NCBI GenBank assembly: GCA_964620125.1 | Contig: CAZUGQ010000006.1 | Location: 6,216 to 70,215 of the forward strand | Reading direction: 5' to 3' | Source of the DNA: an uncultured Hyphomicrobiales bacterium | Lineage (GTDB): Bacteria > Bacteroidota > Ignavibacteria > Kapaibacteriales > Kapaibacteriaceae | Length of the DNA: 64,000 nt | In this document: positions 20,528 to 64,000 of the stretch, in pieces | Position numbering within the stretch: position 1 is the first letter of the stretch | Layout: the number at the start of each line of letters is the position of its first letter | The notes under the pieces: generated by a model | Databases searched by the model: none | Seen by the model: the letters and a program-made list of their open reading frames with translations, nothing else | What the model was told of the DNA's origin: nothing | Position numbers and translations under genes: made by a program

Positions 20528-21042
20528 TGCCTACTCCTCAAAGATGCACTGTCTCGCTCGGCAGCCTCATACTCCTTGAGCAAGGAATCAATGTTCACGG
20601 ATCCGCCGGGACGGGTAAGTGTGATGTTCGGCGGGTCGAGTGCAATGAATGCATTGGCCTTGTGGCGCCGTGCAGTATCCGTCCACGCAACAATCGGTTG
20701 AAAGCCAGCCATATAGGTGAAGATGCGCGGATCGGTCCATATCGCCTGAGCCGTCTGGTACCGGCTGGCGTATGCCATAGGCGGCAGAAGCACAACGTCA
20801 GTATCGCGCCGATTGCTGGCAATCCATGTTGGCACGTATGCATTGGCCACATGGCGCATTAGCATGCGTTGCTTCCACGACGTAATGGTCATGAAGGAAT
20901 CTATGCGCTCTGCATAGAAACCGATGCGTTCCTTATGTGAACGGGCGTAGCTGTTAAGCTCTCCCAGTTCGGCGTTATAGAGCAGCAGCAAGAAGACCAG
21001 CAGGATGGCCGACAGGATGAGTGCTCTAACAGTAAAAAACAT
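20524..21042 (-). CDS. Hypothetical protein with N-terminal TM anchor (172 aa). Its start overlaps the atpG stop by 1 nt.
   Basis: ORF with hydrophobic N-terminus (LILSAILLVFLLLLY). It is tightly coupled between atpG and the GT-C gene. Confidence 0.45.
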   Translation of the reverse strand: MFFTVRALILSAILLVFLLLLYNAELGELNSYARSHKERIGFYAERIDSFMTITSWKQRMLMRHVANAYVPTWIASNRRDTDVVLLPPMAYASRYQTAQAIWTDPRIFTYMAGFQPIVAWTDTARRHKANAFIALDPPNITLTRPGGSVNIDSLLKEYEAAERDSASLRSRQ

Positions 21043-21920
21043 CAGCTTGCCGACAGAGCTTCGGCCCCACCAACAATCTCGAGCATCTCCTTGGTGATTG
21101 CGGCCTGCCGTTCACGGTTGTAGATAAGCTGCAACGCAGAAATGAGATCCTTGGCATTGGACGTTGCATTCTCCATCGCAACCATACGCGCAGCCTGCTC
21201 AGCTGCATTAGAGTCGAGGAGTGCCCTCCACACCTGTGTATTCAAGTACTTAGGCAGCAACGAGTCAAGAATGTCGGTACGCGTTGGCTCGAAAATGTAA
21301 TCAACGGAATGTGCACCCTGTTCCTTTTCAACGGGCATGATGGGTAGCAGTGGTAAAATCCGAACTTCCTGCTTGATCACGCTCAGGAACTCATTGAACA
21401 TCAGCTCGATGTGATCTGCACGATGAGCCAGAAACGCATCCGAAGCCAGCTCGGCAACGTTTGTGGCAATCGAGTAGTCAAGCTTGAGGAAGGCATCCGG
21501 AAACCCGGCAACGATCTCTGTTCGCGACTTCCGGAATTGCGCAACAGACTTGCGGCCAATGGCTACCACGCGAATGCTGGCACCGGGATGGAGTTGCTGC
21601 AATTCCGCAATGCGTGATCGAACAGCACGAAAGAGGTTGGTGTTGAAACCACCACACAACCCACGATCGGAGGAAATCACACCAACGATGATGTTCTCCA
21701 CCTTCTTGCGCTGCTCGAAGTAGGGGTGCACAAAGTCCGACTCGGCAGCAGCAAGGTTGCGAAGGATCTTCTCCAGTTGCCTAGCAAAAGGGCGAGCTGC
21801 GGTAATAGCATCCTGCGCTCTGCGCAACTTTGCCGCAGCTACCATTCGCATGGCCTGCGTGATCTTGCTGGTGTTGCGGATTGCAACGATGCGGTTTCGT
21901 GTTTCTCGTAGGGTAGCCAT
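21042..21920 (-). CDS. atpG: F0F1 ATP synthase subunit gamma
   Basis: Full-length gamma subunit: N-terminal MATLRETRNRIVAIRNTSKITQAMRMVAAAKLRRAQ and C-terminal ...ITKEMLEIVGGAEAL. Confidence 0.9.
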   Translation of the reverse strand: MATLRETRNRIVAIRNTSKITQAMRMVAAAKLRRAQDAITAARPFARQLEKILRNLAAAESDFVHPYFEQRKKVENIIVGVISSDRGLCGGFNTNLFRAVRSRIAELQQLHPGASIRVVAIGRKSVAQFRKSRTEIVAGFPDAFLKLDYSIATNVAELASDAFLAHRADHIELMFNEFLSVIKQEVRILPLLPIMPVEKEQGAHSVDYIFEPTRTDILDSLLPKYLNTQVWRALLDSNAAEQAARMVAMENATSNAKDLISALQLIYNRERQAAITKEMLEIVGGAEALSAS

Positions 21921-21941: not shown

Positions 21942-22898
21942 TCACAGATAGGGCCACGACGTGGCCAGGTATCCCTGCACATAGTCAGCAATAGCGGTTT
22001 CCAGAGTGGTGGTTGGTGCTCCCACAGCTTCCCGAAGGCGGGTAATGTTTGCACAGGTGTAATTCTGGTACTGGTTTCTCAGGTGTTCTGGCATGGCAAC
22101 ATACTCGATGGCTGGTTCCTTACCCATCGCTGCAAACACTGCCTTCACAAGCTGATTCCAACTGGATGCAACACCCGAACCCACATTCAGGATGCCATGA
22201 ACAGATGGCTGATCCAAACACCGCAACACCACATTTACAGCATCCTTCACGTACACAAAGTCGCGCTGTTGCTCGCCATCCGAAAACTGCGGACTGGTTG
22301 ATGCAAACAATCGCACAACTCCAGTGCTGACCACTTGTTTATATGACTTCCACACCATGCTGGCCTGTTCTGCCTTGTGGTATTCGTTAGGACCGAAGAC
22401 GTTAAAGAATTTGAAGCCTACACAAGCCCCTTCCAAGCCCTGATCTCGTACCCACAAGTCAAACCGGTGCTTTGAATATCCGTACATGTTTAGTGGCCGC
22501 AGGTCACGTTCAGCGTCGTCAAACCCCCGTTCGCCATCACCGTAGGTGGCTGCACTGCTGGCGTAGATGAAGCGCGCATTACGTTCGAGTGCGAACCTGG
22601 CAACATCTACGGAATACCGATAGTTGTTGTCAAACAGGTAGTCGTTGTCCGTTGCCGTTGTAGCGGAGCACGCACCCATGTGAATCACAGCCTCGATGGA
22701 GCCCCACGTTTTACTCTGCAGGTCTCGTCTGAACTGCTCTTTGCTAACGATGTCAAGGAACGAATGATGCGCAATGTTCTTCCACTTTTCTCCCGTTCGA
22801 AGGGAGTCTACGATCAGAACGTCTCGCTGCCCTCGGGCATTCAAGGCTGCCAACACACAGCTGCCGATAAAACCGGCACCTCCAGTGAGTATGATCAT
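21942..22898 (-). CDS. hldD: ADP-L-glycero-D-manno-heptose 6-epimerase
   Basis: MIILTGGAGFIGS..., ...ASSAATYG..., ...YGYSK... and ...FFNVFGPNEYHKAEQASMV... align closely with E. coli HldD/RfaD motifs. Confidence 0.85.
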   Translation of the reverse strand: MIILTGGAGFIGSCVLAALNARGQRDVLIVDSLRTGEKWKNIAHHSFLDIVSKEQFRRDLQSKTWGSIEAVIHMGACSATTATDNDYLFDNNYRYSVDVARFALERNARFIYASSAATYGDGERGFDDAERDLRPLNMYGYSKHRFDLWVRDQGLEGACVGFKFFNVFGPNEYHKAEQASMVWKSYKQVVSTGVVRLFASTSPQFSDGEQQRDFVYVKDAVNVVLRCLDQPSVHGILNVGSGVASSWNQLVKAVFAAMGKEPAIEYVAMPEHLRNQYQNYTCANITRLREAVGAPTTTLETAIADYVQGYLATSWPYL

Positions 22899-22917: not shown

Positions 22918-24468
22918 TCATACAGTGGTCATAAACCGTTCCGAGAACGTTCCAATCATCTCGTCAAGCTCACGAGTAATCTCGTCGGTAAGTGCCTTTT
23001 GAACAGACAGCTTGTCAAGCAACGCTGCATGACTCACACGCGCATACTCAAGCAAGTCGGTCTCATACCGCTTTACATCGTCAACCGGTAACTCATCCAT
23101 CGCTCCCTTGGTGGCTGCGTAAATCACCACGATCTGTTCTTCAACAGGAACAGGTTGATATTGCCGCTGCTTCATCACCTCCATAAGGCGTGCACCTCGA
23201 CGCAGTTGCTGTTGCGTACTCTTGTCTAGGTCAGATCCGAACTTGGCAAAGGCTTCCAGAGCACGGTATTGAGCCAGCTCAAGCTTGAGTGGTCCGGCTA
23301 CTTTTTTCATAGCCTTGATCTGTGCATTCCCACCCACACGCGACACGGAGATACCAATGTTCAAAGCAGGGCGAACGCCGGCGTTGAACAGGTTGGGCTC
23401 CAGATAAATCTGTCCGTCAGTAATCGAAATCACGTTTGTTGGGATATACGCGGCAACGTCACCTGCTTGCGTTTCAATCACTGGCAACGCCGTAAGGGAT
23501 CCCCCCCCAAGTCGGTCGCTAAGTTTTGCAGCGCGTTCCAGTAGCCGACTGTGCAGGTAAAAAACATCGCCAGGGTAGGCTTCACGCCCTGGTGGACGGC
23601 GTAGGAGGAGCGACACCTGACGGTATGCGGCTGCCTGTTTGGACAAGTCATCGTAAATCACAAGTGCATGCCGTCCGCTATCACGGAAGTACTCGCCCAT
23701 GCTGCATCCGCAGTATGGGGCGATAAACTGCAAGGGGGCTGGGTCGGACGCAGATGCAGTTACAATGGTTGTATATTCCATTGCACCGTACTTCTCGAGG
23801 GTAGCAAGCACGTTTGCAACGGTTGACCCCTTTTGCCCAATGGCAACGTAGATGCAGTACACAGGCTTGATTCCGCGTTCTGCAGCTTCGGGCGTGTGCG
23901 TGTATTTCTGGTTGATGATCGTGTCTACTGCCACCACGGTTTTACCTGTCTGCCGGTCGCCGATGATCAACTCGCGCTGGCCGCGACCAATCGGAATCAG
24001 GGCATCGATGGCCTTGATCCCCGTTTGCAGAGGTTCGGTAACAGGCTGGCGGTCAATAACGCCAAGGGCTTTTCTTTCGATGGGCAGGTACGCTTCAGTA
24101 TTGATTGGTCCTTTACCATCCAACGGCTGCCCCAGTGGGTTCACAACCCTACCAATCAAGGCTTCGCCAACGGGTACCGAGGCAATACGGCCAGTGCGCT
24201 TAACCTGATCACCTTCCTTTACCTGTGAATCGTCGCCAAACAGCACAACACCTACGCTGTCTTCTTCAAGGTTCAGTACCATTCCCACAACGCCGTTCGG
24301 GAACTCCACAAGCTCCGATACCATCACGTTTGTGAGACCATAGATGCGGGCTACGCCGTCGCCCACCTGAAGAACTGTGCCTACCTCGTAGATGTCGGTT
24401 TCGTTCTCAAATCCTGAGAGTTGGCGCCGAAGGATGGCGGAGATCTCTTCGGGTCTTACTTCAGCCAT
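22918..24468 (-). CDS. atpA: F0F1 ATP synthase subunit alpha
   Basis: Walker A GDRQTGKT, 516 aa, alpha-subunit N- and C-terminal domains. Confidence 0.95.
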
Positions 24469-24489: not shown

Positions 24490-25029
24490 TCATGTATGTG
24501 CGAGTTCATGCTTCAGTTCTTGAAGCCGATGGCGCAGAGAACCGTCCAAAACGATATCGCCGATGCGAACAACCACACCGCCGATCAGGTCTGGTTTCGA
24601 TGCGAATGTTGGTACCACGTGTTTTCCGGTGCGCTGCTCTAGTGCTGTTTGCAGTTTTTTCTGCGAGGAACCGTCGAGTGCCGCTGCGCTGTTTACGGTA
24701 ACCCGAAGAACGTTGTTTTTGGCATCGAGCAGTTCCTGGAATACCTGTGCAATGTGACCAAGGTATGCCTCCCGGCCTTTCTCGATTACCAGCACGATAA
24801 AGGCGAGGGTGAGTTCCGAAACCTGTCCTGCAAAAACATCCTTGGCAATGTTCATCTTCTGCCATGCCTTTACAACAGGACTGCGGAAAACGATTCGCAG
24901 GTCTGGTGCCGATTCAAGTATTCTGCGCACGGTTGCTAGGTCGGATTCAACAGTGCTGGTGCACTTCAGTCGCTCCGCTTCTTGCAGTAGAGCCATGGCG
25001 TAGCGACTGGAGATGGCCTTGGTTGACAT
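24490..25029 (-). CDS. atpH: F0F1 ATP synthase subunit delta (OSCP)
   Basis: 179 aa OSCP-like protein, positioned between atpF and atpA. Confidence 0.8.
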   Translation of the reverse strand: MSTKAISSRYAMALLQEAERLKCTSTVESDLATVRRILESAPDLRIVFRSPVVKAWQKMNIAKDVFAGQVSELTLAFIVLVIEKGREAYLGHIAQVFQELLDAKNNVLRVTVNSAAALDGSSQKKLQTALEQRTGKHVVPTFASKPDLIGGVVVRIGDIVLDGSLRHRLQELKHELAHT

Positions 25030-25033
25030 AGCT

Positions 25034-25528
25034 TCAGTTCTTAGAGATATCGTTTACGTATTCTTCAACCAAGCGCTTTTGGTCAGCATCCTGAATGGTG
25101 CGGCCAAGCAATTTTTCCGTTGCTTCTACAACAAGCGTTGATACTTCCGCACGCAGAGCTGCGATGGCTTCGTCCTTTTGCCGTTCTATCTCGCGCTGTG
25201 CCTCCACCAACTTCTGATGTTTTACGGCGTCGGCCTCCTCGGTAGCCCGTCGTATAAGTGCTTCTCCCTGTGACTTCCCTTCGCGAATGATTGACATCAC
25301 CTCCGCTTGGGCACCGGCGATCTTTTCCTTGGCCTCTTTCAGCAGACTCTGCGATTCGGCATTCGCACGCTCAGCGGCATGAATGTTATCGGCAATTGCC
25401 TTCTCACGTGCCTCGAGACCTGCACGCATGGGCTTCCACGCAAACCGTGCGATGATGTATGCAAAGATGGTGAAGTTGACGAGGCTCCAGAAGAGCAGGC
25501 CGGGTTGGAGTTGGAGGAAGTCTGGCAT
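25034..25528 (-). CDS. atpF: F0F1 ATP synthase subunit b
   Basis: N-terminal TM helix followed by a long charged coiled-coil (EAREKAIADNIHAAERANAES...). Confidence 0.8.
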   Translation of the reverse strand: MPDFLQLQPGLLFWSLVNFTIFAYIIARFAWKPMRAGLEAREKAIADNIHAAERANAESQSLLKEAKEKIAGAQAEVMSIIREGKSQGEALIRRATEEADAVKHQKLVEAQREIERQKDEAIAALRAEVSTLVVEATEKLLGRTIQDADQKRLVEEYVNDISKN

Positions 25529-25670
25529 ATGAGGGACTGGAGGGACTGGAGGGACTGGAGGGACTAGAGGGGAGGTTGAGTTTGGGTTAGAGGGGTTGGG
25601 AGAGAGGCAGAGTCGGGAGGTCTGGGGAAGGCTTCCCGACTCTGACCCCGGCGTGCGGGGTCGGTGCAGG
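25529..25670 (-). promoter_or_regulatory. atpE-atpF intergenic RNA element. On the transcribed strand, two stem-loops lie immediately after atpE, then a ~85-nt purine-poor CU-rich tract ends in (CAGUCCCUC)x4 abutting the atpF AUG.
   Basis: 11-bp perfect stem CAGAGTCGGGA/TCCCGACTCTG (25608..25644) and 5-bp stem CCCCG/CGGGG (25646..25660). The plus strand carries GAGGGACTG x4-5 at 25531..25575. The intergenic region is 142 nt, whereas other atp junctions are 4-25 nt. Confidence 0.5.
25531..25575. repeat. Tandem 9-nt repeat GAGGGACTG (4 perfect-or-near copies plus 1 degenerate)
   Basis: gagggactg gagggactg gagggactg gagggacta gaggggagg, read directly. Confidence 0.9.
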
Positions 25671-25901
25671 TTATGATTTTACTGCGAGCAGAATGCAGAT
25701 AACGCCGGCGAGAAGTGCCACGCCTTCGATAAGGGCGGCACCGATGATCATCGTTGTGCGGATGTCACCGGCGTTCTCGGGTTGGCGGCTGCTGGCTTCA
25801 AGGGCGGCGGCGGCAAGGCGACCGATGCCGGTGCCTACGCCAAAAACCGTCACGCCCACGCCGAGACCGGCTGAGAGCCATGCGAATGCTACTGCGTCCA
25901 T
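25671..25901 (-). CDS. atpE: F0F1 ATP synthase subunit c
   Basis: 76-aa two-helix proteolipid with a GxGxGxG helix-1 motif and a carboxylate in helix 2 (...AALIEGVALL...). Confidence 0.9.
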   Translation of the reverse strand: MDAVAFAWLSAGLGVGVTVFGVGTGIGRLAAAALEASSRQPENAGDIRTTMIIGAALIEGVALLAGVICILLAVKS

Positions 25902-25926
25902 GTTTCCTCCAAAAGATTAATGTGGG

Positions 25927-27012
25927 TTAGCTGATGGTAGTCGTGTGCTTGAGTTCGAGACCATCGTGGTCGTGATGATGCTCGTGATGTTCATCGTGTG
26001 TTGCATGCTCGCCAAGTGCAAGACCTACGAACACAGAGGTGAGCATGGCGAAGATGTACGCTTGGAGGAAGGCTACAAGTAGTTCGAGTAGATAGATGAA
26101 CACCGAAAAGCCAACACTTACCGGAGTTACAAGCCACGACTCGAAGAAGAAAATGAGCCCAACCAACGCCAGAAGAACGATGTGCCCTGCCGTCATGTTC
26201 GCGAATAGACGAATCATCAAAGCAAAGGGCTTGGTGAACATCGAAATGATCTCTATCGGCACCATTATTAGAGCCATGTACCAGGGGGCTCCACCAAGCA
26301 GGTGGTGTAGCCAGGCCATGATACCGGCATCCTTAATGGCAATGTAGTTCACCACAAGGAAGGATGTTAATGCAAGTGCCGCGGTTAGCCCTAAGGCTCC
26401 AGTGGCGGCATGGTTGCCCGGCAAAAGTCCGAACAGGTTGAGGAAGAGAATGAAAAAGAAGAGCGAGATAATGTATGGCATCAGTCTCATCGCTCTCTTC
26501 ACCGTGCCAACGTTGGGCACAACAATCTGATCCCGTATGTATACCACCAGGCTCTCAAGCAAGTTCTGCAAACCCTTGGGTGCTGCAAGCGGATGGGAAC
26601 GATACCGACGCGTGCCAATGATGAACAACAAGGAAATCACAGCTATCGCCAACCACTCATACACCACGAAGTTGGTAACGGAAAGGTCCAACATCGGATG
26701 CCCATGATCGCTCTTCCTCACCGGATGGCCTTCGTGTAATGTGTACAGGCCTGCCTGCTCCATCGCCGATGTGTTGGCATAGACGTGCAGTCCGTTGTCA
26801 ACCAAAATCACCGGAGTTACCGGCAAATGCACGAAGAATGCATTGATCTCATGATGATCACCTAACTCTCCGATGAGATGGGTGAAAACTTCCGATCCCT
26901 TTACTTCGCCACCATGGGTAGCGTGAGGATCGGCCGCTCCATGTGCCTGCCCTTCTTGTGGATGACCATGCTCTCCATGCCCACCGTTGTGCTGCGAACT
27001 GTCTGCTTTCAT
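25927..27012 (-). CDS. atpB: F0F1 ATP synthase subunit a, with His-rich N-terminal (~60 aa) and C-terminal (~30 aa) extensions
   Basis: Core a-subunit helices with the conserved Arg region (...LFANMTAGHIVLLAL...). The N-terminus reads MKADSSQHNGGHGEHGHPQEGQAHGAADPHATHGGE and the C-terminus ALGEHATHDEHHEHHHDHDGLELKHTTTIS. Confidence 0.85.
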   Translation of the reverse strand: MKADSSQHNGGHGEHGHPQEGQAHGAADPHATHGGEVKGSEVFTHLIGELGDHHEINAFFVHLPVTPVILVDNGLHVYANTSAMEQAGLYTLHEGHPVRKSDHGHPMLDLSVTNFVVYEWLAIAVISLLFIIGTRRYRSHPLAAPKGLQNLLESLVVYIRDQIVVPNVGTVKRAMRLMPYIISLFFFILFLNLFGLLPGNHAATGALGLTAALALTSFLVVNYIAIKDAGIMAWLHHLLGGAPWYMALIMVPIEIISMFTKPFALMIRLFANMTAGHIVLLALVGLIFFFESWLVTPVSVGFSVFIYLLELLVAFLQAYIFAMLTSVFVGLALGEHATHDEHHEHHHDHDGLELKHTTTIS

Positions 27013-27392
27013 GAAAACCGAAGTACCGGTGTAGGTGTCAGTGATTCAATGGCGTTTTTTTTTAACAGGTCACTTACGGGCGGACGCACCTGTCTCTTCT
27101 GCTTTTCGAACCATTGATGAAAAAAAAGGATCTCTCCCATGAGAAAAACAAAGCAGGATATCGCAAACGTTACGGCAAAGGCTACTTGTTCCATGCCGAT
27201 AACACCGATACATGCCCAGATGGCAATGATGACCAGAATGGCACGTATGCCGAACGAGCCAAAGACTAAGGCAAGGAACGTGTTAAGATCCTTGCCAAAA
27301 GCCCAACGCGATACCACAAAGCCTAGCACAGCGTTGAACACACAGATACCGAACGCAGTCAGTGCTGCCACGATCGGTCCTTTTACGTCCAC
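27009..27392 (-). CDS. Putative ATP synthase protein I-like small membrane protein (4 TM). Its stop overlaps the atpB start (ATGA).
   Basis: 127-aa hydrophobic ORF immediately upstream of atpB. The family assignment is by position and topology only. Confidence 0.5.
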   Translation of the reverse strand: MDVKGPIVAALTAFGICVFNAVLGFVVSRWAFGKDLNTFLALVFGSFGIRAILVIIAIWACIGVIGMEQVAFAVTFAISCFVFLMGEILFFHQWFEKQKRQVRPPVSDLLKKNAIESLTPTPVLRFS

Positions 27393-27661
27393 CCGTTTTC
27401 CTTTCCTGCTTTCCGCCGTTGGTCACGAGCCAGCAACCGCTGGGTGGACCGTAAAAATTGAATGAAGCCAACCACGCTTCCTACTCCAAGGCCAACAACT
27501 AATCCCCACGGAGTACTCCCGGAACGGTTGTCTATCAGCCAACCGATACCGCCCATCAGCAACACGGTGACCGCCAATTGCGATCCCAAAGCCATGTACG
27601 GTGCGAGTTGCCCCATCACCGTTGCTGACCGCTGGTCCTTGGGAGTTTTGGGTAGGGACAT
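27383..27661 (-). CDS. AtpZ/AtpI-family small membrane protein (putative F0F1-ATPase-associated)
   Basis: 92 aa with two TM segments and Gly-rich helices (MGQLAPYMALGSQLAVTVLLMGGIGWLID...GLVVGLGVGSVVGF). It is the first gene of the atp cluster. Confidence 0.5.
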   Translation of the reverse strand: MSLPKTPKDQRSATVMGQLAPYMALGSQLAVTVLLMGGIGWLIDNRSGSTPWGLVVGLGVGSVVGFIQFLRSTQRLLARDQRRKAGKENGWT

Positions 27662-36761: not shown

Positions 36762-39599
36762 CTATCTCAAGACAACCAATGACCTTCTGGATACCACAAC
36801 GCCATTCAGCAGCCGCACATCATAGGTGCCGGACGGAAGTGCACTCACATCGGCAGCAACCAACGTGGGTGCGTTGCTGGTAACCCAAGTACTCCACACC
36901 TTCTGGCCTTGAACATCGTGTATGGCAAGCTCACCATTGTGTACAGGACCCGTTATGGGTATCGTAACCAGTGATCGTGCTGGAATTGGGAACGGCGTGC
37001 CAAGAGTTTGGTTCTGGCTGGAGAACAGCGAATCCTGCGGCCGACCAACCTGTGATGTTGCGGATCCAAGCTCGTAGAGTCTGCTCTCCAACGTATCGAT
37101 GACCAACACCTGTCGATAGGATCTGCGACTCCTTGGTTCGAGTGGGTACAGGAATCGCATGCCGGTTGCCGCTGCTACGTCTGCATCCGACAGCTCCACG
37201 CCAACTTCTTCTCCACGTAGCATAGAACTTTTTCTTCCAATGGGAAAGCCGGCGTATGTAGTGGAGTTGTCAACCAGCACAGTTATGGGCATGGCATCGG
37301 TGTGGTAACTGCTCGTCTGCATTAGAACAAGGGGCTCACCATTCACGATGCTCCCTGCAACAATCTCGGCCACCGAGGTGCCCTTTCGCACGAAGTTGTG
37401 TGCGGGGTTGGTGCCGAGATCCCAGTCCAGATACCAGGCAACACCAACATTGCGGAGAACACTATCAGATGTGTTCTCCACGGTAACATCCAGCACCACT
37501 ACACCACTATCCTTTGATGCAACAAAGGCCTGGACTTCCGCGCGAACACCCAAACGCAGCGAGTCGGGTGCATCTGCGTCAGTGAACACGGCAGTAAGGG
37601 GCTCTGGTGCAACGAATGGCTTGAGTGGATGAAAGAAGTCATGAACGCCACGTTCCGCTCGCACAGCATCGACAACCAATCCATTGGCTCCAATCATCAA
37701 CCCACCTTCGTAGAGCTGCCCGCAGAACCTGCGATACACCAAGCCGTCACCTTGACCACGTTGAATATCTGTGTTGCCAATCCGACCGCGGTCACCCAGT
37801 GAAACTGTAAGTACATCGTTTGACACGGTTCGAAATGCAGGTGCTGGTACCACTGCCACCTGGATCGGACGTTCATGAATCTCACCTGCACCGGTAGTAC
37901 CGCGAATTGTGGCCACGATGTAAACAGCCGTATCTGTTGACCGCTGTACAACACACGACGCCATTGGTATTCGCAATCGTTCGCCTGTCGAAAGCTCCTC
38001 GTTGATCGGAATAGTTGCCGAACTGATCAACGATACGGCTGAAGCCTGTGCACCCACCACGCGCACCTGTGCCAACTCCACAGCCGTCCACTCCGCCAGG
38101 ACCGACGTTCCGTCAAGGGTTATGTCGATGGTATCACCCACGCCCCACCGCTCATCTCCACTGCGTGCGCTAATCACGGGACTGCTCCATTCCATGGAGG
38201 GGAGACTGTCCGGCGACATGGATACGGCATTGAGGACATCGATGCGGCCGAAGGGAAGCAGGTCCGGAATCATAGTGCCGGGAACTTTAGTTCCCGGCAC
38301 TATGATTCCGCCATCCGAGCTCCACGGCGCCCTCCGCGCACTTTCACGCACTAAGGCACATGCCTGTATGGGAGTTAGGTCGGGATGCCGCGATCGCACC
38401 ATTCCTACAACGGCTGCAACAATTGGGCTCGCTCCAGACGTGCAGCAGAAGCCTCCATAGCCTCCGTCGTTCGAGGTGGTTAGGGTTTCCTGTCCGGGCG
38501 CCATCACATCAACCGTCGGACCATGCCCACTCATGGCAATCACAGAATCATCAGGATTGGTCACACCTACATTCAATACTCCGGGGTACGATCCGGGATA
38601 AAAGGATGTTGGCGTTCCGTGATTCCCTGCTGCAGCAACAATTGCTGTTCCCCGCGCAATGGTGTAGGCCACTACTGCCTCATCGATGCACGAGCGGTTG
38701 AAAGAACCCCACGAACAGTTCACAACGTCGATTCCATTCACTGCACAATACACGAGCGACTCGTATCCATATACGATGCCGCCCATATTGTCCGGCATGG
38801 TCTTGATTGGAACAAGCTTGTTGTTGCGGGTTACGCCCGCCACTCCGATGGCATTGTTTGATGTAGCCCCACATATCCCGGCTACCCCTGTTCCATGACC
38901 CTCACGCTTGTTGAAGGTGTTGCCCGGTGGCGTTCCATCATCACTCGTGCAAAAGTTATACCCTCGGTGGTCATCCACGTACCCGTTCCCATCATCATCA
39001 ATGCCATTGGCTGGTACCTCTGCAGTGTTCACATGTATGGCATCCTTCAAGTCTTCATGATCCTGCAACACTCCACTGTCACTAATGCCAATCAGGACGG
39101 TATCGGAGCCCCCTTCCACATCCCACGCAGTAAACACGCGAATTGAATCCAACATCCTCTGGTCTGCAAGTCGAGCGTCGTTCGGACGCTCCAGAAGTTG
39201 CTGCACAACAACAGGACTGCAACATTCAACAAGAGTGCATGAACGTAGCAGCTGTTCCATCATCCTCTCCGGTGGCACGGAAGGATCGAATCGTATAACG
39301 TATGATCTGAGAAGGGGCTCTTCGAGTCGCAGGATTTCTTGGTGATTCTGCGTTTCACTTCCCGGTTTCATGGCATGATACGATGCCTGGTACGGCAGCA
39401 TCGCGTACTCGATTTCTGCCCCAAGGTCGCGCAGAACTGCAGCATGCTGATATCGTGGTATACCCGCCTGCAACATGACCTTGAGCCTACCAGCAACAAC
39501 CGGTTCACTGCGTATCCCTATCTGCGGCTGGAGAACGGTCTGTGCAGTGAGTGTTGCTGCGCAGCACACTGCACATATGTGTGCAAGAAGTGTTCGCAT
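36762..39599 (-). CDS. Secreted subtilisin-like S8 serine peptidase with Ca-binding insert, beta-sandwich domains and T9SS C-terminal sorting domain
   Basis: Signal peptide; catalytic D (GISDSGV), H (HGTGVAGI) and S (CTSGASPIVAA); DDDGNGYVDDHRGYN insert; C-terminus ...LAIHDVQGQKVWS...LPSGTYDVRLLNGVVVSRRSLVVLR. Confidence 0.85.
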   Translation of the reverse strand: MRTLLAHICAVCCAATLTAQTVLQPQIGIRSEPVVAGRLKVMLQAGIPRYQHAAVLRDLGAEIEYAMLPYQASYHAMKPGSETQNHQEILRLEEPLLRSYVIRFDPSVPPERMMEQLLRSCTLVECCSPVVVQQLLERPNDARLADQRMLDSIRVFTAWDVEGGSDTVLIGISDSGVLQDHEDLKDAIHVNTAEVPANGIDDDGNGYVDDHRGYNFCTSDDGTPPGNTFNKREGHGTGVAGICGATSNNAIGVAGVTRNNKLVPIKTMPDNMGGIVYGYESLVYCAVNGIDVVNCSWGSFNRSCIDEAVVAYTIARGTAIVAAAGNHGTPTSFYPGSYPGVLNVGVTNPDDSVIAMSGHGPTVDVMAPGQETLTTSNDGGYGGFCCTSGASPIVAAVVGMVRSRHPDLTPIQACALVRESARRAPWSSDGGIIVPGTKVPGTMIPDLLPFGRIDVLNAVSMSPDSLPSMEWSSPVISARSGDERWGVGDTIDITLDGTSVLAEWTAVELAQVRVVGAQASAVSLISSATIPINEELSTGERLRIPMASCVVQRSTDTAVYIVATIRGTTGAGEIHERPIQVAVVPAPAFRTVSNDVLTVSLGDRGRIGNTDIQRGQGDGLVYRRFCGQLYEGGLMIGANGLVVDAVRAERGVHDFFHPLKPFVAPEPLTAVFTDADAPDSLRLGVRAEVQAFVASKDSGVVVLDVTVENTSDSVLRNVGVAWYLDWDLGTNPAHNFVRKGTSVAEIVAGSIVNGEPLVLMQTSSYHTDAMPITVLVDNSTTYAGFPIGRKSSMLRGEEVGVELSDADVAAATGMRFLYPLEPRSRRSYRQVLVIDTLESRLYELGSATSQVGRPQDSLFSSQNQTLGTPFPIPARSLVTIPITGPVHNGELAIHDVQGQKVWSTWVTSNAPTLVAADVSALPSGTYDVRLLNGVVVSRRSLVVLR

Positions 39600-59864: not shown

Positions 59865-59895
59865 GCGTTCGTAGTCGGTCAATTTTCAGGAGAAG

Positions 59896-59935
59896 GGATC
59901 AGCAAGAGATTCTCTTGCTGATCCTTTCTCGTTTC
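59896..59935 (+). terminator. Strong intrinsic terminator after the PhoX-like gene: ~13-bp stem GGATCAGCAAGAG/CTCTTGCTGATCC followed by TTTCTCGTTTCC
   Basis: Near-perfect inverted repeat 30 nt after the stop codon, immediately followed by a T-rich tract. Confidence 0.65.
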
Positions 59936-61900: not shown

Positions 61901-63226
61901 ATGAAGCAACCGCTGTGCATCGTTCTGGTGGGTATTGTTGGTCATGTCCTTTCGATTGCACAGCCAGCAGCCATAACGTTTACTCAGCACGTTGCACCGA
62001 TTATCTACCGCAACTGCACTCCTTGCCATGTTGATGGCGGTCCCGGACCATTCCCCCTTGTCACGTACTCCCAGGTTAGTGCCAAGGCGTCCATGATTGC
62101 CATGGTTACGCAGGACCGGTACATGCCTCCACAACGCAACGATCCTACGTACCGAAGCTTCGCCCACGAACGAAGGCTTACGGATAGCGACATTCAAACC
62201 ATCAGGTCTTGGGTGCAATCGGGAAAAAAGGAGGGAGCGCAACGGTTCCTACCAAAGCCCCCTACCACGCAGGCAAACCGATCGATACATGGTAAGCCGC
62301 ACATCACACTAAGCATGCCGTCGGCAGTTCCCATTCCCGGCAACAACCAGCAGACGTATGTGTGTTACGCCATTCCGTTTGAGTTGGACAAAGAATATCA
62401 GGCACGTGGCATCGAGTATGTACCCAGCAATCGCAAGCTTGCACACCATGCTAGCTATCAGATTCTTGAAGTAGCACCCGATGTTATGCTCGACAGCATA
62501 CCACGTTACTTTTTCTACGAACCTGGACGGCGTGTTGTTGATGACGTAGACTACAATTACTTCAAGCTCATCAGTCCTACGTATGGTCCACCAATCGAAA
62601 CCTTCCATGGCGGTTGGCTTCCGGGAAGCTCACCGTGGGTGTACCCAGATGGCATAGGCTTCCGATTACCTCGCCGCGGCGTGCTCATGTTGCGCAACCT
62701 GCACTACGCACCAACACCGGTTCCATCGTCTGACTCCGTTACCGTGCATATCTATCTGGGTAAGAAGGAATCACGAACCGTGACCTTTGCTGCATTCCGA
62801 CCAGCAATCGGTGTTGCCGATACCGTTATCCGAGCCAACTCGGTAGACACTCACCGCATCTATGTTCGGATACCGCAGGACATCAGCCTGCTAAACATCA
62901 ACCCACACATGCATCGTTTGGGGCGCAGCTTTACGGTCTGGGCAGAAACTCCATCGAAGGATACTATCAAGTTGTGCCGCATCCCCGACTGGGACTTTGA
63001 TTGGCAGGACTTTTATCTGTTCAAGAATCCTGTTCACATTCCGGCAGGTAGCGTGTTGAATGCCATTGCCATTTTCGACAACACACCGGCCAACCCCAAT
63101 AACCCATTCTACCCACCGCGCGATGCACCATTCGAAGTTGGAATGGATGACACCAACGAGATGATGCGCTTAGTGCTTCTAGCTCTTGAGTATCGAAAAG
63201 GCGACGAAAAGATCAGGCTTGAGTGA
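61901..63226 (+). CDS. Fusion of an N-terminal c-type cytochrome domain (PSCyt1-like, CTPCH ... YMPP) with a copper type II ascorbate-dependent monooxygenase (PHM/DBH)-like two-domain region
   Basis: Heme motif VAPIIYRNCTPCH and DRYMPPQ. Putative CuH ligands are LAHHASY and a downstream His. Putative CuM ligands are NPHMHRLG and NEMM, comparable to the PHM HxH...DEMC arrangement. Confidence 0.5.
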   Translation: MKQPLCIVLVGIVGHVLSIAQPAAITFTQHVAPIIYRNCTPCHVDGGPGPFPLVTYSQVSAKASMIAMVTQDRYMPPQRNDPTYRSFAHERRLTDSDIQTIRSWVQSGKKEGAQRFLPKPPTTQANRSIHGKPHITLSMPSAVPIPGNNQQTYVCYAIPFELDKEYQARGIEYVPSNRKLAHHASYQILEVAPDVMLDSIPRYFFYEPGRRVVDDVDYNYFKLISPTYGPPIETFHGGWLPGSSPWVYPDGIGFRLPRRGVLMLRNLHYAPTPVPSSDSVTVHIYLGKKESRTVTFAAFRPAIGVADTVIRANSVDTHRIYVRIPQDISLLNINPHMHRLGRSFTVWAETPSKDTIKLCRIPDWDFDWQDFYLFKNPVHIPAGSVLNAIAIFDNTPANPNNPFYPPRDAPFEVGMDDTNEMMRLVLLALEYRKGDEKIRLE

Positions 63227-63250: not shown

Positions 63251-64000
63251 ATGATCGATTGCCAGAACACGATGCGGTTTGCCCGCATCGTACTTGTGTT
63301 GGGCATGTACCTTGTAGCGGCTTTCGCTGTATCTGCAGCCGATACTCTGCGAGTATGCACGTACAATGTGCTGAACTACGGTACCAGCAATGATGACGGT
63401 CGAATCCCCATGTATGCCACGATCATGCAGGAAATCAAACCTGATATTCTGGTCTGCCAGGAAGTGGTTGACAACTCCTTGGGGCCACAATTCATCAGCA
63501 ACGTTCTCACATGGTCAAGCTTTGGTGCTTCACCGTTTGTAGACGGCCGCGACACAGACAATCAGCTCTTCTACGACCTCAGAAAACTTCGTCTGCTCAC
63601 CCATCGGCAGATCGGCACCGAGCTGCGCAACATCAGCGAATACATGCTGGAGCGTTTTCCAGTGGCTGGCCAGCAACCCGACACGCTGGTAGTGTACTCA
63701 GGTCATCTGAAGGCAAACAACGACGATGCTTCGGCAGCACAGCGTGGCCGCGAAGTGGCAGCAATGCAGGCCACCGCTTCCTCAGCCCCCTACCTTTTTT
63801 TCTGTGGCGACCTCAACGTATACAGTCCAAACGAAACTGCCTATCGTGCCCTCACGCAGCCTGCAATGGGGCGCACCTTTGTTGATCCCTTGGGCACATC
63901 GTGGGTACGAAACACATCGCAACATGCAGCCCTGTACACACAATGCACTCGTGCCAACACCATCAGCGGTTGTGGCGGTGGCGTTGACGGCGGTCTTGAC
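63251..64000 (+). CDS. Secreted endonuclease/exonuclease/phosphatase (EEP)-family protein, 3' end beyond window
   Basis: Signal peptide (RIVLVLGMYLVAAFAVSAA) and EEP N-terminal motifs LRVCTYNVLNYG...DILVCQEV. Confidence 0.7.
   Translation, partial: MIDCQNTMRFARIVLVLGMYLVAAFAVSAADTLRVCTYNVLNYGTSNDDGRIPMYATIMQEIKPDILVCQEVVDNSLGPQFISNVLTWSSFGASPFVDGRDTDNQLFYDLRKLRLLTHRQIGTELRNISEYMLERFPVAGQQPDTLVVYSGHLKANNDDASAAQRGREVAAMQATASSAPYLFFCGDLNVYSPNETAYRALTQPAMGRTFVDPLGTSWVRNTSQHAALYTQCTRANTISGCGGGVDGGLD

Follow-up and report, generated by a model that had tools for sequence, protein, structure and literature searches.

A covarying double hairpin and a G-poor, C-rich tail between atpE and atpF in a Kapabacteria-like clade: a candidate RNA element for partitioning expression of the atp operon

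On the minus strand of the window (the whole stretch of DNA that was analysed, 64,000 nucleotides long) lies a string of atp genes, for which ORF calls and their translations give the following order: an ORF of the ATPase_gene1 family (27383-27661), an unnamed ORF (27009-27392), atpB (a subunit, 361 aa; 25927-27012), atpE (c subunit, 76 aa; 25671-25901), atpF (b subunit, 164 aa; 25034-25528), atpH (24490-25029), atpA (22918-24468), a gene for an NAD-dependent epimerase (21942-22898) and atpG (21042-21920). The identification of atpE is based on the ORF and its translation and on a PF00137 match of the identical protein in relatives, and atpF is an ORF that starts with AUG and has no Shine-Dalgarno (SD) sequence. 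The gene for the NAD-dependent epimerase/dehydratase, between atpA and atpG, occupies the same place in relatives L015-L024, and downstream of atpG there are ORFs without a Pfam match instead of atpD/atpC. AtpB carries histidine-rich extensions at its N- and C-terminus (GGHGEHGHPQEGQAHG... and HATHDEHHEHHHDHD), especially at 25940-26010 and 26900-27012, and a 12-nt repeat was detected by TRF at 25970-26002.

The junction between atpE and atpF measures exactly 142 nt (25529-25670, minus strand) and is the sole long one of the string, the remaining junctions having 4-25 nt, just as had been noted when the locus was first read from its letters. On the mRNA strand it reads UAA-CCUGCACC-(GACCCCG CACGC CGGGGUC)-(AGAGUCGGGA...UCCCGACUCU)-G-CCUCUCUCCCAACCCCUCUAACCCAAACUCAACCUCCCCUC-UAGUCCCUC-CAGUCCCUC-CAGUCCCUC-CAGUCCCUC-AU-AUG, where the brackets enclose two hairpins, hereafter H1 and H2. 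The N-terminus of AtpF that follows, MPDFLQLQPG, aligns to MP.FL..PG in all relatives. Public annotation of atpF cannot be relied on here: P0008, the call given for the source itself (131 aa), takes the internal Met34 as its start, so that most of the N-terminal hydrophobic segment is lost, and the calls in relatives are N-extended to 186-196 aa, the one that was checked (P0027, 187 aa; L035 1501-1569) starting at an ATG within the H2 loop. The possibility that the spacer is itself coding was rejected: neither ATG nor GTG nor TTG occurs on its sense strand, even though the atpF frame is open throughout, and the lengths of the relatives' spacers (92-261 nt) follow no frame. An internal promoter was rejected as well, no promoter-like site having been found inside the spacer.

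H1 (25644-25662, minus strand) begins 8 nt past the atpE stop codon and has the sequence GACCCCG-CACGC-CGGGGUC, with 7 bp, a 5-nt loop and a folding energy of -11.9 kcal/mol. H2 (25608-25644, minus strand; CAGAGUCGGGA...UCCCGACUCUG) follows with a gap of 0 nt and has an 11-bp perfect stem, 3 apical pairs and an energy of -19.5 kcal/mol (z = -4.96). The sequence-only reading had placed two adjacent stem-loops after atpE on the mRNA strand, and both are there; its 5-bp GC stem for the first falls short of the 7 bp of H1, and its 11-13-bp perfect stem for the second agrees with H2. When the intergenic transcript is folded, H1 and H2 jointly reach -31.3 kcal/mol with z = -5.0, and none of 200 shuffled sequences folds as well; the tail that follows has 0 kcal/mol.

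In order to follow the junction beyond the window, relatives were gathered by AtpF similarity in genomes and metagenomes, by AtpE protein identity and by homologue look-ups. They are metagenome-assembled genomes labelled Candidatus Kapaibacterium, Ignavibacteria and similar, and the window encodes proteins with type-IX-secretion sorting domains, which fits the FCB group. No conspecific sequence was found in the collections, the exact AtpF being absent from the records; among full-length AtpF proteins the best identity is 75%. H1 and then H2, with zero spacing, are present in all of the distinct spacers, about 25 in number, which come from relatives whose AtpF is 59-75% identical and from loci with an identical AtpE. 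The H1 sequence is often unchanged (GACCCCGCACGYCGGGGUC), and the H2 stems are wholly different between clades (CAGAGUCGGG..., GGUCGUAGGG..., CAGUGUCGAC..., UGAGCAUGG...). Distant AtpF homologues (31-36% identity) have an 8-nt junction without a hairpin, or one unrelated hairpin. In one relative the spacer contains a further structure: at L010 3819-3960 a 45-nt unit is repeated 3.3 times inside the atpE-atpF spacer (261 nt), each copy with its own GC hairpin (CCCCGGGCCUUGGCCCGGGG).

A covariance model of H1+H2, R1, was built from a hand-checked alignment, and covariance-model re-alignment was used, since MAFFT-only alignments put the helices out of register. Across 21 distinct sequences, 95.5% of the cells are in standard pairs (94.6% in H1 and 96.2% in H2), as compared with 29-52% when the partners are slid by 1-3 columns. 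Both sides have changed in 14 of the 17 pairs, and all ten modelled H2 pairs covary in these 21 sequences; since the alignment was made to fit the model and the sequences belong to a few clades, the independent events are fewer than these cell counts suggest. An analysis of 16 sequences agrees with that of 21. G-U pairs, of which there are eight at one H2 position, indicate that the structure is an RNA on the sense strand and not a DNA palindrome. Taken together, the comparisons show that H1+H2 is a real, selected RNA structure just 3' of atpE, and that the conserved part of the junction is the hairpin pair, not the repeat in the tail.

In the window, R1 has a single significant match (25603-25668, minus strand; 65.4 bits, E = 2e-15), and with filters off the next best score elsewhere is 8.4 bits, apart from the opposite strand of the same site. 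A dispersed REP- or MITE-like element was rejected: the model matches the 64 kb once, and about 220 kb of loci yield a single match for each locus, at atpE-atpF every time. When the region was scanned against Rfam with E values up to 10, the best hits were miRNA models with 16-24 bits, against gathering scores of 60-97, and a scan of the whole window at the gathering level gave no match. The searched literature contained no specific description of a hairpin between atpE and atpF or of Rho sites in atp operons. As far as searched, then, the covarying two-hairpin motif at atpE-atpF of this Kapabacteria-like clade is undescribed in Rfam and in the literature; the principle of intercistronic protective hairpins and of Rho attenuation is already well known.

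The best reading of H1+H2, by analogy, is that the pair serves as a decay terminator, like the intercistronic stem-loops of malE-malF and puf. A different proposal, which seems improbable, is that the double hairpin is a specific site, where RNase III would cut a coaxially stacked rod of about 20 bp, or RNase E/Y would cut beside it, or a protein would bind and regulate atpF translation or Fo assembly, so that the two halves of the operon would be uncoupled. The proposal draws on a constraint that goes beyond what a simple exonuclease block would need: the H1 sequence given above occurs in two clades with completely different H2 stems, the GGGUC junction is nearly invariant and the helix spacing is always 0 nt. 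Against it, H1 is quite different in L015, L017 and L018 despite their identical AtpE, each helix alone is below RNase III length, and there is neither a candidate protein nor a precedent in Rfam or the searched literature. The decay-terminator reading of the pair is the one retained below.

The remainder of the spacer is an unstructured, C-rich and G-poor tract of 80 nt (25529-25608, minus strand; C 43, U 18, A 14, G 5). Folded alone it has an MFE of 0 kcal/mol, and in its first part the unpaired probability is 0.98. It had been described beforehand as an almost purine-free tract of about 85 nt; a long C-rich tract is indeed there, with 80 nt and 24% purines, and it is G-poor rather than purine-free. 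Within it lies a tandem repeat of the unit CAGUCCCUC on the mRNA strand (25531-25571, minus strand), which is the best-scoring TRF array in the window (period 9, 4.6 copies, 96% matches, score 75). Four repeat copies abutting the atpF AUG had been reported for this place, which is nearly so: three copies are exact (CAGTCCCTC), one starts with U (TAGTCCCTC), and between the last copy and the AUG there are 2 nt (AU). A two-unit 18-mer has three matches with at most 3 mismatches, as compared with 0.02 expected by chance.

Tail length in the relatives varies between about 25 and about 180 nt, and only the tails of close relatives can be aligned. Their composition is kept, the last 30 nt before atpF having on average 12% G, against 19% in the other leaders of the window and 26% genome-wide. 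The unit CAGUCCCUC is not conserved, and relatives have other units or none; at least six lineages have lengthened the tail through tandem duplication, with units that differ. To the 9-nt unit of the window (4.6 copies) correspond a degenerate 8-nt unit in L027 (6.9 copies), 14-nt units in L001 (4 copies), L009 (2.9 copies by TRF; CCTCACA three times by eye) and L035 (2.5 copies), and in L010 the 45-nt unit with a hairpin in each of its 3.3 copies. In L027, the closest relative, the same two hairpins stand in a spacer of 141 nt, and the C-rich tail after them, 78 nt long, has another sequence; the L027 spacer is identical in five samples. Part of the best explanation of the junction is that slippage has recently expanded the tail into the 9-nt repeat, which has no sequence-specific role. 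The length of the tail and the periodicity of its C-runs appear to be maintained without conservation of sequence.

A neutral origin of both the CU-rich repeat and the long tail, by microsatellite-like slippage in a tolerant spacer where only about 25 nt of unstructured RNA is needed, with expression left unaffected, is rather unlikely. The lack of a conserved unit and the wide range of tail lengths speak for it, as do the near-identical copies, which imply a recent expansion, and the independent expansion of different units in L001, L009, L010, L035 and L027. Nevertheless, all of these independent expansions stay G-poor and C/A-rich on the mRNA strand, the spacers of the window and L027 measure 142 and 141 nt although their tails have diverged, tandem repeats are denser in the atpE-atpF spacers (1.6 per kb) than in the rest of the loci (0.31 per kb), and a long untranslated C-rich RNA in an essential operon should carry a cost if Rho is active. 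The C content could also be a by-product of the avoidance of G, which counts against the preferred reading of the junction given below.

The complement of the repeat (25533-25562, plus strand) forms G3N6 four times over and is the sole canonical G4 motif (G3+N1-7 x4) on either strand of the 64-kb window, and the loci that were fetched contain one only at the corresponding position of L027-L031 (L027 1947-1972, minus strand), where the repeat unit is different. From here it is possible to speculate, at long odds, that the C-run tract is a selected attenuator tunable by slippage, whose length and CCC periodicity are kept (142 vs 141 nt) and which would set how often transcription aborts before atpF, through Rho loading or a template-strand G-quadruplex. 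If that were true, a gain or loss of repeat units would shift the Fo c:b ratio by heritable steps, SD strength not being available to this lineage for the purpose.

The selected hairpin pair and the tail have to be considered together with the way in which the two flanking genes are translated. An SD-like motif at -20 to -4 precedes 7 of the 48 large ORFs of the window (crude gene calls). In such an SD-poor genome the missing SD before atpF is normal; the 30 nt upstream of atpF are CCAGTCCCTCCAGTCCCTCCAGTCCCTCAT, and the atpF genes of the relatives likewise lack an SD. Such SD-poverty is expected of relatives of Bacteroidetes, where it is the absence of structure, and no SD, that tunes initiation (PMC6847099, PMC7797042). 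As for atpE, it has a GGAGGA SD 4 nt before its AUG (25902-25918, minus strand), and GGAGG is found upstream of atpE in all the relatives (L001-L021). The atpE SD is an exception to the SD-less habit of the lineage, at the gene that needs the highest output. Its conservation means that the excess of subunit c is probably achieved in part by translation, as in E. coli (PMC4378010).

The G-poor, unstructured leader of atpF is a selected feature. The proposal that the CU-rich repeat is a translational tuner of atpF is supported in part: a leader of this kind is common in the relatives and fits SD-independent initiation, but the unit CAGUCCCUC itself is not conserved. In the MFE structure of atpE plus spacer, 1.5 repeat units are paired with the region of the atpE SD, and an anti-SD mimic that sequesters the atpE SD was considered and rejected: the duplex has z = -1.6 against shuffled tails, and in 20 relatives z scatters around 0. 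The remark that the CCCUC repeats resemble an anti-SD core thus finds no support, shuffled tails pairing with the atpE SD just as well and relatives showing no such complementarity. The same can be said of their SD-like complement, as nothing credible is encoded on the opposite strand, which carries no more than the end of an ORF (86 aa) that runs antisense to atpF.

The composition of the tail also resembles that of a Rho-loading region. The 78 nt at 25530-25607 contain 43 C and 4 G, and this C minus G of 39 (z = 5.9) is the highest on both strands (128 kb scanned), the next best 78-nt window having 24. The first 78 nt of atpF are C>G-skewed too (C 32, G 10 at 25447-25524) and are among the top ten. 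The tail holds a chain of seven YC dinucleotides spaced N9-13, and so has the features expected of a rut site, that is, some 70-80 nt of untranslated and unstructured C>G RNA with spaced YC; directly upstream of this rut-like region there is a stable stem-loop without a U-tract. Rho-dependent 3' ends of E. coli mapped by Term-seq show the same arrangement, a stable U-less stem-loop with the rut directly downstream, and exonucleases trim the RNA back to the hairpin (PMC6061677); Rho is encoded by most FCB-group genomes (PMC11347177). Out of 25 distinct loci, 9 have the strongest C>G window of their sense strand at this position. The C>G tract is extreme in three lineages only (the window, L027 and L001) and unremarkable in L002, L018 and L039. 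Moreover, many of the relatives' tails, with 25-30 nt and 17-20% G, are too short for Rho loading, so that Rho cannot be the conserved mechanism.

A canonical intrinsic terminator was rejected, as the terminator scan had no match in 25529-25670. There remains the unlikely variant in which the hairpins form a partial, factor-independent terminator (an attenuator) without a U-tract, RNA polymerases stopping after H2 so that there are fewer atpFHAG transcripts and the tail is only a spacer or leader, a variant suggested by the stable GC-rich hairpins directly past a highly expressed cistron, by a U-run a few nt past H2 in some relatives (UUUUUU in L002, UUUUU in L009 and UUUU in L003) and by another strong inter-gene hairpin with a weak interrupted U-run (59890-59930), and opposed by that negative scan, by the sequence directly after H2 (CCUCUCUCCC), which has no U-tract, by the lack of conservation of a U-tract in relatives and by the fact that efficient intrinsic termination normally needs one (PMC6061677).

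The reading that is preferred for the junction as a whole, with a probability of roughly 0.55, is that the spacer is a two-module intra-operon device that partitions expression, made up of decay-terminator hairpins for the atpE segment and a G-poor leader that in this lineage would also load Rho. The ATP synthase has 8-15 c subunits per a, b2 and F1 set, and the way operons supply subunits in such proportions is a classic problem of stoichiometric tuning, which E. coli solves mostly by translation. In the first module, H1+H2 would work as a stable 3' cap that stops 3'-to-5' exonucleases, so that the atp(I)B-E segment ending at the hairpins would outlive the atpFHAG part, whatever ends or cuts the transcript downstream; a longer-lived atpE segment and the strong, conserved atpE SD would together give the c-subunit excess. 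In the second module, the unfoldable G-poor tail would leave the SD-less atpF start unpaired and at a distance from the hairpins. The 70-80 nt of untranslated, rut-like C>G RNA that this genome and a few relatives have there may in addition load Rho, in competition with the ribosomes that start at atpF; Rho would probably end a fraction of the transcripts inside atpF, and exonucleases would trim these back to H2.

Stabilisation of the upstream atpE segment had already been suggested in the sequence-only reading. It now has in its favour that the hairpins are selected and placed where they could protect the 3' end, with compensatory changes and sense-strand G-U pairs, and this support is comparative in kind. 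A point against all models of stabilisation is that atpB, the gene of a single-copy subunit, lies on the same upstream segment and would be stabilised too.

The stem-loops of malE-malF and puf reportedly go back to Newbury in 1987 and Chen in 1988. Protective 3' structures between cistrons set the stoichiometry of operons, the examples being the REP hairpins of E. coli malE-malF and the puf stem-loop of Rhodobacter capsulatus (PMC5927463). The atpE-atpF junction resembles these systems in that stable hairpins lie in the spacer right after the cistron that is needed in excess, no U-tract follows and there are compensatory changes. A longer-lived upstream segment is the effect to be expected here too. 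The junction differs from them in having two abutting hairpins with a fixed spacing of zero, in forming a motif that is unique in 64 kb and not a dispersed REP, and in belonging to an atp operon of an uncultured FCB-group lineage.

The resemblance to the Rho-dependent 3' ends of E. coli (Dar & Sorek, 2018; PMC6061677) lies in the succession of a stop codon, a U-less stem-loop and about 80 nt of unstructured C>G RNA. The skew here is far stronger (C 43 / G 4). Unlike those ends, this junction lies inside an essential operon and directly before the next start codon, so that termination would be partial, and its rut-like tract is derived in part from a 9-nt tandem repeat and is extreme in only some relatives.

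The E. coli atp operon also needs c in a ratio of about 10:1 and also gives atpE the strongest ribosome-binding signal of the operon, here the conserved GGAGG with a G-poor leader; in E. coli there is a translational enhancer of atpE, and the gene has a higher ribosome density and mRNA depth (PMC4378010). What lies between atpE and atpF in E. coli is of another kind: the spacer is 61 nt long and AU-rich, it includes an SD for atpF, its folding is not significant (z = -0.75), and neither the hairpin pair nor the C-rich tract has a counterpart in that operon. With regard to initiation, the junction agrees with the SD-independent mode of Bacteroidetes (Baez, 2019, PMC6847099; Jha, 2021, PMC7797042) in the missing SD before atpF, the unpaired start codon and the SD-poor genome. 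It departs from Bacteroidetes initiation regions in that the leader is C/U-rich and not A-rich, position -3 is C and atpE keeps its SD.

The presence of a covarying double hairpin after atpE throughout the clade suggests that part of the stoichiometry is set at the level of RNA, by 3'-end protection and possibly by Rho attenuation, the 9-nt tandem repeat being lineage-specific. The motif is an unannotated cis-RNA element and a candidate for the RNA family databases. It can also be used to check gene calls, atpF being mis-started in the public annotations of the source and of related genomes.

Other strong hairpins were observed in the window. At 59890-59930 (plus strand) there is a 19-bp hairpin (context fold z = -4.9) between the genes of a PhoX-like phosphatase and a di-haem cytochrome c peroxidase, the second inter-gene hairpin of a co-directional pair, and the weak interrupted U-run after it is CUCGUUUCC. 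A 12-bp hairpin at 63266-63294, about 40 nt past the end of the ORF at 61901-63226 (plus strand) and without a clear U-tract, may be another U-less 3' structure of this genome. Finally, a 46-nt palindrome at 38265-38310 (CGGAATCATAGTGCCGGGAACT...), with a 21-bp stem and -40 kcal/mol on either strand, is located within a 945-aa subtilase ORF that has a T9SS sorting domain, just past the S8 domain.
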